Notes: generated by a model not told the origin, from the sequence alone. Shown: positions 36,401 to 64,000, numbered from the stretch's first letter. The stretch is DNA of 64,000 nucleotides from Gammaproteobacteria bacterium (GCA_030147845.1 JASBUN010000022.1:6152-70151), one strand, 5' to 3'. Translations and numbers: made by a program.

Positions 36401-38966
36401 CGGCAAGCTGATTGACGTTGTCGGTCAGGTCGCGCCACAGGCCAGCGGCGCCCGGCACCTTGGCTTGTCCGCCGAGTTTTCCTTCGATACCGACTTCACG
36501 CGCGACGTTGGTTACCTGGTCTGCAAACGTCGCTAGCGTATCGATCATGCCGTTGATCGTGTCGGCCAGGGCGGCGATCTCGCCTTTCGCTTCCACCGCC
36601 AACTTGCGCTTCAAGTCACCATTGGCCACGGCGGTCACGACGTCGGCGATGCGTCGTACTTGGTTGGTCAAGTTGGCGGCCATGGAGTTTACGTTGTCGG
36701 TCAGATCTTTCCAGATGCCGCCGACACCGAGAACGTTGGCTTGGCCGCCGAGCTTGCCTTCGGTGCCGACCTCGCGCGCCATGCGCGTAACTTCCGAGGC
36801 GAACGACCCGAGCTGATCGACCATGGTGTTGATGGTGTTCTTGAGCTCCAGAATTTCGCCCTTTACGTCCACCGTGATTTTTTTGGAGAGATCGCCGCGC
36901 GCCACTGCCGTGGTTACGTCGGCTATATTGCGCACCTGTCCGGTCAGGTTGCTGGCCATGGCGTTGACGTTGTCGGTTAAATCTTTCCATGTGCCTGCGA
37001 CGCCACGCACTTGCGCCTGTCCGCCGAGCTTGCCTTCGGTGCCGACTTCACGCGCGACACGTGTCACTTCCGAAGCAAACGAGTTGAGCTGATCGACCAT
37101 GGTGTTGATGGTGCTCTTCAGCTCCAGAATTTCGCCCTTTACATCCACTGTGATTTTTTTGGAGAGGTCACCGCGCGCTACCGCCGTGGTCACTTCGGCG
37201 ATGTTACGCACCTGACCGGTCAGATTTCCGGCCATGGAGTTGACGTTATCAGTGAGGTCCTCCCAGATCCCATCCACGCCGGGAACGTTGGCCTGTCCAC
37301 CCAATTTGCCTTCGGTGCCGACTTCGCGCGCTACGCGTGTGACCTCCGAGGCGAACGAATTGAGCTGGTCCACCATCGTATTGATGGTGTTTTTCAATTC
37401 CAGGATTTCACCTTGGACATCGACCGTGATTTTCTTCGATAAATCGCCACGCGCCACGGCGGTGGTTACATCAGCGATGTTGCGCACTTGGCCGGTAAGG
37501 TTGCGCGCCATGGCGTTAACGTTATCGGTCAGGTCCTTCCACGTCCCGGCGACGCCACGCACCTCCGCCTGTCCGCCGAGCTTGCCGTCGGTACCCACTT
37601 CGCGCGCAACACGCGAGACTTCAGACGCGAATGAGCTGAGCTGATCCACCATCGTATTGATGGTATTTTTTAGCTCCAGAATTTCGCCTTTCACGTCTAC
37701 CGTGATTTTTTTTGATAAATCGCCGCGTGCCACGGCGGTGGTCACATCGGCGATGTTACGTACCTGACCGGTGAGGTTGCCGGCCATGGAATTGACGTTA
37801 TCGGTCAGGTCTTTCCAGGTGCCGCCGACGCCGGCGACGTTGGCTTGGCCACCGAGTTTGCCCTCCGTGCCGACTTCGCGCGCAACGCGCGTGACTTCCG
37901 AGGCGAAGGAATTGAGCTGGTCGACCATCGTGTTGATGGTGTTCTTCAATTCGAGAATTTCGCCTTTGACGTTGACGGTGATTTTTTTCGACAGATCGCC
38001 GCGCGCCACGGCGGTGGTCACATCGGCGATGTTACGCACCTGCGATGTCAGATTGGCGGCCATCGAGTTGACATTGTCGGTAAGGTCTTTCCAGATGCCG
38101 CCCACGCCGCGCACGTCGGCTTGGCCGCCGAGTTTGCCTTCGGTGCCGACTTCGCGCGCGACGCGCGTGACTTCCGAGGCGAACGAGCCGAGCTGGTCGA
38201 CCATCGTATTAATGGTGCTTTTCAACTCCAGAATTTCGCCTTTGACGTCGACCGTGATTTTCTTCGACAAATCGCCGCGCGCCACCGCAGTGGTGACCTC
38301 GGCGATATTGCGCACTTGATCACGCAGATTGGCGGCCATCAAATTTACGCTGTCGGTGAGATCCTTCCAGGTGCCGGCCACACCCTTGACCTTGGCTTGC
38401 CCGCCGAGCTTACCTTCGGTACCGACTTCGCGCGCGACGCGGATGGTTTCCGTAGTGAAGGAGTTGAGCTGATCAGCCATGGCATTGACCACTTTGCCGA
38501 TGCGCAGAAACTCACCTTGGAGTGGATAGCCGTCGATTTCCAGTTGCATGCGCTGACTCAGGTCACCCTTGGCCACCGCGCCGATAACGCGCGACATTTC
38601 ACTGGTCGGTTTGACCATGTCGCTGATGAGGTTGTTGATGGAATCGATGCCATCGGCCCATGCGCCGGTGACGTTACCGATGCGCGCGCGCTGTGAGATC
38701 ATGCCCTGCTTGCCGACCACGAGGCTGACGCGCGCCAGCTCTTTGCCCATCATATCGTTGAGTTCGACGACATCGTTGAAGGCGTCCGCCAGTTCCTGGC
38801 CCAGAGCGGAGTCGGTACTCGGCATATGGACCGAGAAGTCGCCGCGCTTGAGTGCTTTGAGCGCTCTGAGTAACTGGCGGGCGTGGTTTGCATCGACGCC
38901 GGCTGATTCGCTGAAATGCGTTGCCAACTCGGCCTGGGCGGTGGCACTCAGGTCTTCTCGTGTCAT
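33402..38966 (-). CDS. Giant soluble hybrid sensor histidine kinase: poly-HAMP array (about 10 HAMP-like units including eight 92-aa tandem repeats) - GAF - coiled coil - HisKA - HATPase_c - three receiver domains
   Basis: 1854 aa with no TM segment. Eightfold repeat [18 protein letters not shown]...[59 protein letters not shown] domain ([13 protein letters not shown]). H-box [12 protein letters not shown]. HATPase VSDTGIGI...[22 protein letters not shown] domains ([10 protein letters not shown]..., [10 protein letters not shown]... and one degenerate). Confidence 0.85.
36190..38440 (-). repeat. About eight tandem 276-bp (92-codon) repeats inside the giant kinase CDS, roughly 85-90% nucleotide identity by eye
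   Basis: Recurrent DNA blocks such as GAGCTGATCGACCATGGTGTTGATGGTG...CAGAATTTCGCCCTTTAC...GTGATTTTTTTGGAGAG/CGACA. This also produces long antisense ORFs in the track (for example 36412..38696 +). Confidence 0.8.
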
Positions 38967-39249: not shown

Positions 39250-39319
39250 TTTTTTGCCGAGGGACCCGCCCATCCAAGTGTATGTTTTTTGCCGAGGGAC
39301 CCGCCCATCCAAGTGTATG
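39250..39319. repeat. Perfect 35-bp tandem direct duplication TTTTTTGCCGAGGGACCCGCCCATCCAAGTGTATG x2 in a divergent promoter region
   Basis: Exact repeat read directly, between the giant kinase start (38966, minus) and the uup start (39474, plus). Confidence 0.9.
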
Positions 39320-44148: not shown

Positions 44149-44239
<91 letters not shown>

Positions 44240-44443: not shown

Positions 44444-44564
<121 letters not shown>

Positions 44565-48317: not shown

Positions 48318-48950
48318 TGCGTGCATGGGTTTGGTTCATCCATACATGGCCGAAAACGCATAAAGCCGATGTTTTCTTTGCGAGCTTGGCGGCTTTGCGA
48401 GAGATTAAGGTTTGGTCAACACAAATGATGCTCTCGCAAAGACGCGGAGCCCGCCAAGGTGAATTAGGTCGCCTCATGTCGTGACTTCCGAATGATGCAC
48501 GGATGAATCCGTGCCTACAAAATCAAGCGGCCGTGCATGACACCTCCAGCCGAAGAAATCCCCACCTTGTAGGCACGGCTTCAGCCGTGCACGGGTCTGC
48601 TTTGGTCCAGCCATGCATCGTTGAAAACACATAAAACTGTCCCTTCTTTGCGCGCTTGGCGGCTTGGCGAGAGATTAAGGTTTGGTCAACACGAGGTGAT
48701 GCTCTCGCACAGACGCGGAGCCCGCCAAGGTGAATTAGGTCGCCTCATGTCGTGACTTTCGAATGATGCACGGATGAATCCGTGCCTACAAGATAGGCGG
48801 CGATATTCAAACGCATCTGCCGCGCTCGAGCGTGTTCATTTTGATTTTGTAGGCACGGTTTTAACCGTGCATGGGTTTGGTCCAGCCATGCATCGTTGAA
48901 AACGCATAAAACTGTCCCTTCTTTGCGCGCTCGGCGGCTTTGCGACAGGT
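48318..48950. repeat. Cluster of about 2.5 composite intergenic repeats (about 200-230 bp units) containing GTAG-headed REP-like hairpins (GCACGG-loop-CCGTGC)
   Basis: Unit ...GAAAAC(A/G)CATAAAACTGTCCCTTCTTTGCGCGCTTGGCGGCTTGGCGAGAGATTAAGGTTTGGTCAACAC...GATGCTCTCGCA...GCCAAGGTGAATTAGGTCGCCTCATGTCGTGACTT.CGAATGATGCACGGATGAATCCGTGCCTACA is repeated at 48318-48510 and 48567-48791 and partially at 48847-48950; related to repeats at 62990-63495. Confidence 0.85.
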
Positions 48951-62537: not shown

Positions 62538-62839
62538 TGCCGGGCATCGGCGGGCATCAGACCCTTGTGGAGTACCGCCTTCCGCGGTGAGGCCATCCAG
62601 TCGGTGACGGCATCGCGCCAAGCCAGGTAGTGCGCGGTCTGCTTGTGCGCAGCGGCGGCCTCGGCGTTGGCGTAGACCTCATAGAATACGAATCGGGTCG
62701 GATCATCGGCTTGCTGGGCGATATCGAAGCGCAGATTGCCCGGCTCTTTGACCGAGCCGAGATGATTTTTGCGCGTCGCGGCAATGAAGTCATCGAGGTT
62801 TTCTGCCCGAACGTGTACGTGTACTACTGTGACGTGCAT
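62531..62839 (-). CDS. ABM-domain (antibiotic biosynthesis monooxygenase / YgiN-like quinol monooxygenase) protein
   Basis: About 100 aa ferredoxin-like ABM fold pattern (VTVVHVHVRAENLDDFI...FVFYEVYANAEAAAAHKQTAHY). Confidence 0.6.
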   Translation of the reverse strand: MHVTVVHVHVRAENLDDFIAATRKNHLGSVKEPGNLRFDIAQQADDPTRFVFYEVYANAEAAAAHKQTAHYLAWRDAVTDWMASPRKAVLHKGLMPADARQW

Positions 62840-62989
62840 GGTGTGCTCCTGTCCGCGCGCGGTACGGCGCGCCTTGGGTTATGCAATTGTAGCGCCCGCC
62901 GGGCACTGACAAAAGCGCGCATTGCCACGGTGACAGGCATATTCACCGTGCCGCTACCGTACGCTGTAGCAAGCTGCCGCGCGATATTT

Positions 62990-63495
62990 TGTAGGCACGG
63001 ATGAATCCGTGCCTACAAAACCCTGCCACAATCGGCCACGTACCGTATGGTGTTGTAGGCACGGCTGAAAACGCATGCGGCCGATGTTTCTGTTGCGTGC
63101 TCGGCGTCTTGGCGAGAGCCAGCGAGTTAGCCAAATTGCATGAAACTCTCGCCAAGGCGCAAAGCACGCCACGAAGAATAGATTCCTGATGTTGCGACTT
63201 TGAGTGAGGCACGGATGAATCCGTGCCTACAAAACCCTGCCACAATCGGTCACGTACCGTATGGTGTTGTAGGCACGGCTTTAGCCGTGCATCGGTGTCC
63301 GGTGTGGCAACCGACGCATGGCTGAAAACGCATAAGGCCGATGTTTCCTTTGCGTGCTCGGCGTCTTGGCGATAGCTTGGGAGTTAGTCAATTGCATGAA
63401 ACTCTCGCCAAGGCGCTAAGCACGCCAAGAAGAATAGATCCGTCATGTTGTGACTTTGAGTGAGGCACGGATGAATCCGGGCCTACGAAACTGCT
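62990..63495. repeat. Two tandem about 240-bp composite repeats with GTAG-headed REP-like hairpins, same family as 48318-48950
   Basis: Perfect hairpins TGTAGGCACGGATGAATCCGTGCCTACA at 62991 and 63207 and a degenerate one at 63457; shared module GAAAACGCAT..GGCCGATGTTTC.TTTGCGTGCTCGGCGTCTTGGCGA.AG...CTCTCGCCAAGGCGC.AAGCACGCCA.GAAGAATAGAT. Confidence 0.85.
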
Positions 63496-63538
63496 CGCGA
63501 TCGCATGGCCGCGATGCGTGGTGCCCTACAAGGATCCT

Positions 63539-64000
63539 TCAACGCCTTACCCGGCGTACACGGAAGCGGCGGATCAAGCCGCGCAGTTTGTGTAGCTGTG
63601 CCGCGTTTGGCGTCGGGCCATAACGCAAGGCAATGTATAACTGGGTGATGCGGCGCGCGCGGCCGGCCAACTCTGGACGTGCGCGCGTAACGCGTCGGAC
63701 ATAGTCGAGCGGTCCTTCCTGCGCTGCGCGCGCCAGGCCGCGGCGTTCGAGCTTGCGGCAAAAGCGTTGATAGGCATCGCGCACGCGGTCGCGGTTGGCG
63801 CCACGTTGTCGGAGCGTCAGGTAGCCGAACAACACGATCAAAGCGCCGCTGACCGTCAGCGCCAGGGCACTCGCCAACCATTGCCATGAGGCGTTGCCCA
63901 GCCCGAGTTGCGACCACAAGCGTGTCTGGCGGTTGTTGTCATAGCCCAACACCCATTGATTCCAGCCGTTGTTGAGCGAATCCCACATCAGCGCAACATG
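63539..64000 (-). CDS. C-terminal part of a DUF4129-like (transglutaminase-associated) membrane protein; gene continues beyond the window end
   Basis: C-terminal pattern RKLERRGLARAAQEGPLDYVRRVTRARPELAGRARRITQLYIALRYG resembles the DUF4129 C-terminus; reading frame open to position 64000. Confidence 0.35.
   Translation of the reverse strand, partial: HVALMWDSLNNGWNQWVLGYDNNRQTRLWSQLGLGNASWQWLASALALTVSGALIVLFGYLTLRQRGANRDRVRDAYQRFCRKLERRGLARAAQEGPLDYVRRVTRARPELAGRARRITQLYIALRYGPTPNAAQLHKLRGLIRRFRVRRVRR

Follow-up and report, generated by a model that had tools for sequence, protein, structure and literature searches.

The repeat cluster at positions 62991 to 63486 of the window, by which we mean the entire 64,000-nucleotide stretch of DNA analyzed here, is most probably a recent, lineage-specific, and non-coding mosaic of selfish repeats resembling BIMEs, in which REPs and the end repeats of gene-less GxxExxY cassettes form a composite unit of 220 to 260 nt. 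We assign a probability of about three in four to this interpretation. The presence of the repeats at these positions, far beyond chance expectation, was confirmed, and the composite repeat was shown to be lineage-specific, to occur in at least 5 copies, to be amplified in tandem, and to be associated with both a deletion and a synteny break. Its presence is a sign of recent change in the genome, namely the loss of an EamA transporter gene and a break of synteny at a sister locus, and the analysis links a very widespread and uncharacterized protein family, GxxExxY, to a sharply bordered DNA element of which gene-less derivatives are abundant. The function of this family, the origin of intergenic repeats that break metagenome assemblies, and self-mobilization by a PD-(D/E)XK protein of about 130 amino acids are now directly testable.

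Composite repeats at two loci of the window

The cluster, here called locus B, contained 2 tandem composite units, as had been reported in the preliminary description, and a repeat search of the window identified direct repeats of 74 to 102 nt at spacings of 214 and 256 to 257 nt. The difference in spacing is due to a 43-nt deletion in unit 1 relative to unit 2, which is also why the array was not reported by Tandem Repeats Finder. A sister locus at 48.3 kb, locus A (48343 to 48948, plus strand), was delimited by the repeat search, an arm scan, and a unit alignment. The pattern of a 26-nt hairpin matched the window 6 times with at most 3 mismatches, compared with 0 matches in 100 shuffles, and all 6 matches were located in locus B or at 48.5 to 48.8 kb, with plus-strand copies at 62991, 63207, 63463, 48493, and 48764. 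Likewise, the module TTGCGNGCTYGGCGNCTTNGCGA had 9 matches, every one of them in loci A and B, against 0.04 expected. The 5 units of the 2 loci could be aligned from end to end, linkers included, with a mean identity of 73%, which indicates that the composite unit has been copied as a whole between the loci. The earlier view of locus B as a second locus of one composite family, with the module and the REP hairpin in common with the locus at 48.3 kb, was thereby upheld.

Two repeat types that are independent of each other are combined in each unit: REP hairpins with a GTAG tag, arranged as inverted pairs, and an inverted pair of a 28-nt motif, the copies of which are here referred to as arms. 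Locus B starts with a REP that forms a perfect 26-nt palindrome, GTAGGCACGGATGAATCCGTGCCTAC (62991 to 63016; 0 mismatches), with a GTAG tag on both strands and a DNA fold of -12.1 kcal/mol (z = -7.9). It is followed on the plus strand by a 38-nt spacer between head-to-head REPs (63017 to 63054), which recurs at 63231 to 63268 with one difference (repeat family, 99% identity), by a REP of a second type (GTAGGCACGGCT...; 63055 to 63066), truncated by the 43-nt deletion relative to 63269 to 63323, and by a linker conserved in the unit alignment, GAAAACGCAT..GATGTTTC (63067 to 63090), of which the GAAAACGCAT..ATGTTTC segment formed no stable hairpin (fold z = 0.27). Next come a '>' arm (TGTTGCGTGCTCGGCGTCTTGGCGAGAG; 63091 to 63118, plus strand), which matches 22 of the 25 specified positions and is of the type found directly after GxxExxY stop codons, a 27-nt inter-arm junction seen in both the repeat search and the unit alignment (63119 to 63145, plus strand), a '<' arm on the minus strand (CTCTCGCCAAGGCGCAAAGCACGCCACG on the plus strand; 63146 to 63173; 24 of 25), which is of the type found 13 to 14 nt upstream of GxxExxY start codons, and another linker conserved in the unit alignment (..ATGTTGCGACTTTGAGTG; 63174 to 63206, plus strand).

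The remainder of the locus comprises REP copy 2, identified by pattern match (GTAGGCACGGATTCATCCGTGCCT on the minus strand; 63207 to 63230, minus strand), the recurring spacer, the second-type REP GTAGGCACGGCTTTAGCCGTGCAT (63269 to 63292, plus strand), a linker that includes the conserved GAAAACGCATAAGGCCGATGTTTC (63293 to 63347, plus strand; unit alignment), a '>' arm (63348 to 63375, plus strand; 23 of 25 specified positions), a 26-nt inter-arm junction (63376 to 63401, plus strand; unit alignment), a '<' arm (63402 to 63429, minus strand; 24 of 25), and REP copy 3, also a pattern match (63463 to 63486, minus strand). The hairpins had been described as perfect, which applies to the first copy, whereas the other 2 have a different 5' end (TGAGG...), with an additional stem mismatch (CCGGGCC) in the third. 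Locus A contains arms at 48376 to 48403 (plus strand), 48431 to 48458 (minus), 48646 to 48673 (plus), 48702 to 48729 (minus), and 48921 to 48948 (plus), and REPs at 48495 to 48518, 48569 to 48592, 48766 to 48789, and 48849 to 48872. In total, the window contains 9 arms in inverted orientation, each matching 22 to 25 of the 25 specified positions.

GTAG-type REPs are defined by an unpaired GTAG at one end of a short palindrome with a stem of 5 to 13 bp and a loop of 2 to 20 nt (PMC3733652). GTAGGCACGGCTTTAGCCGTGCAT has this structure, with an unpaired GTAG, a 7-bp stem, and a 4-nt loop (-8.8 kcal/mol, z = -4.9), and the other REP type of the window reads GTAGGCACGGATTCATCCGTGC on the minus strand. 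GTAGGCACGG was present in 10 copies in 2 intergenic loci of the 64 kb, against 3.8 chance matches expected for a pattern with 1 mismatch. The REPs of the window, counted over 64 kb, are extragenic and arranged in inverted pairs and tandem clusters, as is typical of the GTAG type. The term mosaic REP cluster used previously is therefore appropriate, in that GTAG-tagged REPs in inverted pairs are reiterated in tandem together with other DNA, which matches the published description (PMC3733652). It was also noted that another GTAGG-tagged sequence, GTAGGGCACCACGCATCGCGGCCATGCGATCGCGAG, is located just past the tgpA stop codon (63491 to 63529, minus strand); its fold was no better than that of shuffles (z = -1.0), and this sequence is possibly a REP of another type that has decayed.

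GTAGGCACGG was absent from all of the at least 117 listed stretches of other genomes that contain the 28-nt motif, and 5 metagenome contigs with the REP contained no 28-nt arm, so the 2 repeat types are independent of each other. REP and arm are joined only in the composite unit of this genome. The metagenome contigs in which GTAGGCACGGATTCATCCGTGC was observed (L119 to L123) had quite different flanks and base compositions, and some contained other GTAG-tagged hairpins; the REP type is thus not confined to one species.

A REPIN consists of 2 inverted REPs with a short conserved spacer and is able to fold into a single long hairpin. The spacers between head-to-head REPs are 38 to 59 nt long and conserved within locus B but unrelated to each other within locus A, where the DNA between these REPs is unique in each unit, whereas the segment of about 170 nt inside the tail-to-tail REP pair is conserved. 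The unit could accordingly be parsed as bounded by REPs, in which case a GTAGG REP, about 170 nt, and an inverted GTAGG REP would represent an oversized REPIN moved by a RAYT, one of the REP-associated tyrosine transposases that are thought to mobilize REPs, and the arms would be passive cargo captured once. Such a parse places all unique DNA between the head-to-head REPs and none inside the unit, as the unrelated spacers of locus A would suggest, and it agrees with the linkers inside the unit being conserved between the loci, as if the composite had been copied whole, and with REP dimers with structured spacers being known (PMC3733652). Locus B has its exact end at a REP. The exact end of locus A is at a '>' arm, for which an arm-bounded parse is the better fit, and the unit phase cannot be read from tandem arrays. 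Typical REPIN spacers are furthermore much shorter, 20 to 100 bp (PMC3733652), and no HUH motif of a RAYT was found by a regular-expression scan of the 64-kb window, which is a weak test. We consider the oversized REPIN unlikely and retain the mosaic of REPs and cassette ends as the preferred interpretation.

Elsewhere in the window, a tandem repeat of 276 nt was present in 6.6 copies of 80% identity at 36666 to 38488 (TRF score 1999), probably inside a large repetitive coding gene, and a perfect tandem duplication of 35 nt, TTTTTTGCCGAGGGACCCGCCCATCCAAGTGTATG, was present in 2 copies at 39250 to 39319. The sole Rfam matches above the gathering threshold in the window were a long-arm tRNA of 88 nt (44149 to 44236) and a small SRP RNA (44456 to 44552), located 220 nt apart.

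Gene loss and broken synteny in comparison with a relative

Both of the flanking genes are encoded on the minus strand; tgpA has its 3' end at 63539 and the ABM gene starts at 62839, which places locus B downstream of tgpA and upstream of the 5' end of ABM. The association with convergent gene ends that the preliminary description had proposed for examination was thus not observed at this locus. In a close relative (L124), in which the ABM protein is 96% identical to its counterpart in the window (P0001) and the flanks show about 90% to 95% DNA identity, the orthologous site consists of tgpA, about 340 nt, one REP, an intact EamA gene, and then ABM. The segment of about 340 nt contains a hairpin followed by a T run and looks, by eye, like an intrinsic terminator.

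The similarity between the window and the relative breaks off 9 nt past the tgpA stop codon. It begins again at a distance of 8 nt from the first REP, inside the final 40 nt of EamA (62943 to 62982, minus strand); this remnant marks one edge of the replacement and indicates that the lineage of the window has lost EamA. A cluster of 552 nt in the window is found in the place of 1,279 nt at the orthologous site. The cluster was absent from the orthologous sites not only of L124 but also of the relatives L125, L128, and L129. At locus A, the rsgA stop codon is the exact point at which similarity to the relative ceases, and the neighboring genes differ, which constitutes a synteny break. Contigs assembled from short reads of the window's own species terminate within these repeats, which agrees with the presence of additional copies at other sites of the genome.

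The 28-nt motif and the GxxExxY cassette

The 28-nt motif, CTTKGCGNNCTTKGCGNCTTKGCGAGAG, is made up of three 8- to 9-nt repeats (CTTKGCG) followed by AGAG. A scan of one genome per species identified at least 117 stretches with the motif in about 60 assemblies from more than 10 phyla; these copy numbers and the taxon range are lower bounds, and single matches may include MAG binning errors. The motif was found in sulfur-oxidizing Gammaproteobacteria, including the cultured Sedimenticola hydrogenitrophicus and Thioalkalivibrio denitrificans, in Bacteroidota, including gut Prevotella, and in Nitrospirota, Planctomycetota, Verrucomicrobiota, Lentisphaerota, Desulfobacterota, Chloroflexota, and others. 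The bases beyond the search pattern (CT before and GA after) were kept in 114 to 121 of 125 distinct matches, and a mismatch-tolerant scan identified 260 arms compared with 0 in a reversed-sequence control, which shows that the matches are homologous rather than due to chance. The motif was not found in any of 2.9 million viral contigs or 72,556 plasmids, and an exact-sequence literature search for the arm found no paper.

The arrangement of the arms was classified for 133 clusters, which included 61 isolated pairs with the GAGAG ends facing outward, 53 solo arms, and 4 isolated pairs that face inward as in the window. Altogether, 61 of the 65 isolated pairs of other genomes were outward-facing, and their interiors were mostly 15 to 50 nt long, AT-rich, and without conservation. 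In the window, the GAGAG ends of the arms instead face a core of 26 to 27 nt, and since isolated pairs elsewhere face outward, this center is best understood as a short junction from the end of one arm pair to the next. The preliminary description had recognized conserved arms around a variable center, with a core that differs from the one at 48.3 kb. The arms are indeed conserved, as 2 inverted copies of one motif, and the cores of loci A and B, which are alignable but weakly similar, are only about 41% identical compared with 73% for the whole unit; however, the center is a junction, and the CTCTCGCC that had been placed at the end of the core is part of the second arm.

Most arms are intergenic, with a depletion in divergent spacers (10 of 83) that has also been described for REPs (PMC3733652). 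No transposase was associated with the arms: ORFs between distant arm pairs were ordinary genes, no protein family was enriched near arms, and no HUH signature was found in about 0.9 Mb of motif loci. Searches against Pfam and NCBIfam with the ORFs that span the repeats of the window gave no match. Direct repeats of 3 to 8 nt flanking 42 isolated pairs, such as would be left by target-site duplication, were no more common than in shuffled controls (for k = 5, 5 compared with 2.1 ± 1.3 in shuffles).

More elaborate arrangements of the arms were also noted. Tandem arrays with a period of about 105 nt, in which inward- and outward-facing arm pairs alternate, were present in the Gammaproteobacteria MFD03551.bin.2.59 (L028, 7226 to 7978, and L106, 18 to 751) and in Prevotella UMGS868 from the human gut (L112, 2991 to 3492); one of these arrays adjoins a full GxxExxY gene, and the Prevotella array is located between a glycoside-hydrolase-like gene and ilvC. 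Arms with an internal 16-nt unit, GCGAGCTTGGCGCCTT, repeated up to 4 times were seen in L024 (4364 to 4513) and in a Pirellula MAG (L113, 1880 to 2012), and the number of 8-nt units per arm is thus not fixed. Nitrospiria MAGs (L022, L047, L080, L059, L082, and L092) provided another case in which arms have become joined to local palindromic repeats; the arm pairs there are located inside longer genome-specific composites and are flanked on either side by additional small hairpins, for example TTAGGCGCTTACGCCTA and TCCGGCTTGTCCGGG.

A full-length GxxExxY gene for a protein of about 130 amino acids was bracketed by arms in all 7 of the fetched loci with such a gene, namely L028 and 6 further loci that were fetched independently, from unrelated neighborhoods, and that all had the same arm layout. 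The '<' arm at the 5' end (CTCTCGC...CAAAG) ends 13 to 14 nt before the start codon in 6 loci and 47 nt before it in L028, while the '>' arm at the 3' end starts 3 to 13 nt after the stop codon, at 3 to 4 nt in most loci and at 13 nt in Sedimenticola, where it is a shortened arm of 2 units. The complete 130-amino acid ORF of L028, situated exactly between 2 arms, matched TIGR04256 (GxxExxY protein) with 146.7 bits and PF13366 (PDDEXK_3, of the PD-(D/E)XK nuclease superfamily) with 146.8 bits. Alignment of 7 cassettes from unrelated neighborhoods revealed similarity solely between the outer ends of the arms, with unrelated flanks, which defines a discrete unit of about 465 to 480 bp. All 6 of the fetched cassettes examined for orientation were co-directional with the upstream host gene.

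Degenerate forms of the cassette connect it to the window. In the Thiodiazotropha pairs with interiors of about 300 nt, the conserved sequence proved to be a truncated or frameshifted GxxExxY ORF (5 copies), and in L138 and L140 a full cassette is followed in tandem by gene-less or truncated ones. The arm-to-arm junctions of L138 and L140 are 16 to 56 nt long and the interiors of L138 about 170 nt, and the corresponding values in the window are 26 to 28 nt for the junctions and 174 to 191 nt for the interiors, which are filled by REP pairs. By this correspondence, the conserved arms of the window and the center between them are the 3' repeat of one degenerate cassette, a short junction, and the 5' repeat of the next. 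A tblastn search of the 64-kb window for a GxxExxY ORF gave no match at E below 0.01, and the window copies are gene-less derivatives rather than full members of the cassette family. The linkers of the window showed no significant similarity to the leader and start codon, or 5' UTR, of the cassette (z at most 1.5); at the sequence level, the connection of the window to the cassette is through the 28-nt arms only.

In one subfamily of cassettes, a conserved trailer, CCCACAAATTYTGCTGAAGAGCC, was located 23 to 24 nt after the 3' arm. Its carriers were the Thiodiazotropha loci L011, L019, L041, L050, L055, L067, L070, L089, and L107, plus L139, and none of 5,000 random 70-nt segments of motif loci contained it. 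The trailer motif CCCACAAATTYTGC, located after the 3' arm, is similar by eye to the core in the window, but it is confined to Thiodiazotropha and L139, and we do not claim a relationship.

The members of TIGR04256 form large paralogous families and are also found in 23S rRNA intervening sequences. At least 7,982 homologs of GxxExxY/PF13366 were identified at E ≤ 1e-20 among 8,000 candidates scored. The protein had no relative in the PDB by sequence, and its AlphaFold model was of moderate confidence (pLDDT 65.8) and gave no match to the PDB in Foldseek (best E = 0.72). A tblastn search for the four-helix-bundle protein, with an approximate query sequence that makes it unreliable, gave no match. 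PF13366 has been listed under "function unknown, multiple transfers" (PMC3424549), and the papers found on GxxExxY proteins and on 23S intervening-sequence proteins do not mention flanking repeats, so the link between the GxxExxY cassette and the arms appears to be undescribed in the literature searched.

As a tentative proposal, to which we give somewhat less than even odds, the arms and the GxxExxY gene may together constitute an undescribed selfish gene cassette that is distributed across phyla. It would consist of an arm, a 13-nt leader, the ORF, 3 nt, and an inverted arm, would insert without target-site duplication, downstream of and co-directional with host genes, and would leave many gene-less pairs and solo arms behind in genomes from Gammaproteobacteria to Nitrospirota, Planctomycetota, Verrucomicrobiota, Bacteroidota, and Desulfobacterota, with the nuclease recognizing the 8-nt repeats of its own ends. 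If this is true, the uncharacterized GxxExxY family gains a function in homing or mobility.

Arm pairing, spread, and known repeat systems

The units had also been suggested to be paralogous small RNA genes, in which a long hairpin presents a variable loop for target recognition. The arm-loop-arm structure does fold strongly, with -80.8 kcal/mol and z = -5.1 on the plus strand and z = -4.3 on the minus strand, and the loops differ between loci A and B, but a stem that forms equally well on both strands is what is expected of an inverted repeat in DNA. Scans with a sigma-70-like consensus identified no promoter-like site at either locus, and a consensus scan for terminator-like sites found none in the repeats of locus B and 2 at 48.3 kb, compared with 1.1 expected from shuffles. 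No Rfam family matched the repeats of the window or 18 motif loci at the gathering threshold, and in E-value mode both loci of the window gave chance-level matches to miRNA-like hairpins only. Outside the loops themselves, no sequence in the window was complementary to them over 11 nt or more.

Covariation was assessed at 7 variable positions of the arms by comparing true partners with randomly re-paired arms. In 57 outward-facing pairs, 2.63 of the 7 positions were complementary, compared with 3.05 ± 0.16 after shuffling, and in 24 pairs with the orientation of the window the values were 2.38 and 2.88; the fraction of shuffles at or below the observed complementarity was 0.005 to 0.009. True partners are thus less complementary than re-paired arms, the opposite of compensatory change, which indicates that the arms are conserved as a sequence motif and not via pairing. 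The deficit may possibly reflect an avoidance of perfect long palindromes, which has been argued for REP heterodimers (PMC3733652). Considering also that the cluster is missing in the close relative and that the same arms elsewhere usually face outward or bracket a protein gene, it is very unlikely that the units are small RNA genes, and an annotation that was tempting but unsupported is hereby removed from the window.

The lack of covariation bears equally on the possibility that the arm pairs are host elements, such as bidirectional terminators or RNase III sites, in which the 28-bp stem is selected in RNA and the link to GxxExxY is regulatory. Such a role would agree with the preference of arm pairs for gene 3' ends (97 facing 3' ends and 69 facing 5' ends, tallied from context counts), with the co-directionality of all 6 cassettes with the upstream gene, and with the A-rich DNA before and T-rich DNA after many outward-facing pairs (by eye), yet the arms of the window face inward and have no T tracts. 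Moreover, conservation across phyla extends from the pairing to the sequence itself, the number of 8-nt units varies (as in the expansions of L024 and L113), 53 of the 133 clusters are solo arms, and the cluster is dispensable in the close relative. We regard host elements of this kind as very unlikely.

Under the preferred interpretation, a composite unit of about 220 to 260 nt, with at least 5 copies at 2 loci, has been amplified locally in tandem, and the 28-nt motif would form the terminal inverted repeats of a small cassette, about 465 bp long and found in many phyla, with a gene for a GxxExxY protein. The arms may be kept as recognition sites for a protein, most plausibly the nuclease of the cassette itself, rather than as a paired stem, and the gene-less pairs would persist as MITE-like derivatives; the REPs would serve as the substrate of a putative RAYT-type transposase. 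We hold these 3 suggestions with moderate confidence. The composite would then spread or amplify by REP-mediated events and recombination, and any cellular effects, for instance of the hairpins as barriers at the 3' end of the tgpA transcript, would be a by-product. If the cassette moves, it would do so as a chromosomal element, without target-site duplication or an associated transposase.

The REPs of the window resemble GTAG-tagged REP elements (Di Nocera et al. 2013, PMC3733652) in having an unpaired GTAG, a GC-rich stem of 7 bp, and a loop of 4 to 6 nt, and they resemble REP clusters and dimers (PMC3733652) and REPINs (Bertels and Rainey 2011, PMC3116915) in the head-to-head pairs and the tandem reiteration with adjoining DNA. 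They also share with these elements an extragenic location downstream of a gene and differences between close relatives. Unlike in REP dimers and REPINs, however, the outward-tagged REPs of the window enclose about 170 nt with a second, unrelated repeat type; in addition, no RAYT was seen in the window, and the REP sequence also occurs in metagenome contigs of other contexts.

In the BIMEs of E. coli, REPs of alternating orientation are interleaved with conserved motifs, one of which is an IHF binding site. The window likewise contains alternating REPs interleaved with other conserved motifs in tandem arrays, but the interleaved 28-nt triple repeat is common to a cassette found across phyla and is not a species-specific linker. 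MITEs, such as the Correia elements, are gene-less derivatives of elements bounded by terminal inverted repeats. The arm pairs are similar to MITEs in having terminal inverted repeats of 28 nt around a short, AT-rich, and non-conserved interior, many intergenic copies, and a gene-carrying version with the same ends, whereas they differ from classical DDE-derived MITEs in lacking a target-site duplication, in that the cassette protein of about 130 amino acids belongs to the PD-(D/E)XK family and is not a known transposase, and in that the arms are periodic with a variable number of units. The TIRYT/TIRtron elements (PMC3733652) encode an HUH tyrosine transposase and have a reported GGGGWSAS motif that is absent here, and the gene of the cassette is instead a GxxExxY PD-(D/E)XK gene; in both systems, however, long inverted repeats surround one small gene and are also dispersed as dimers and clusters.
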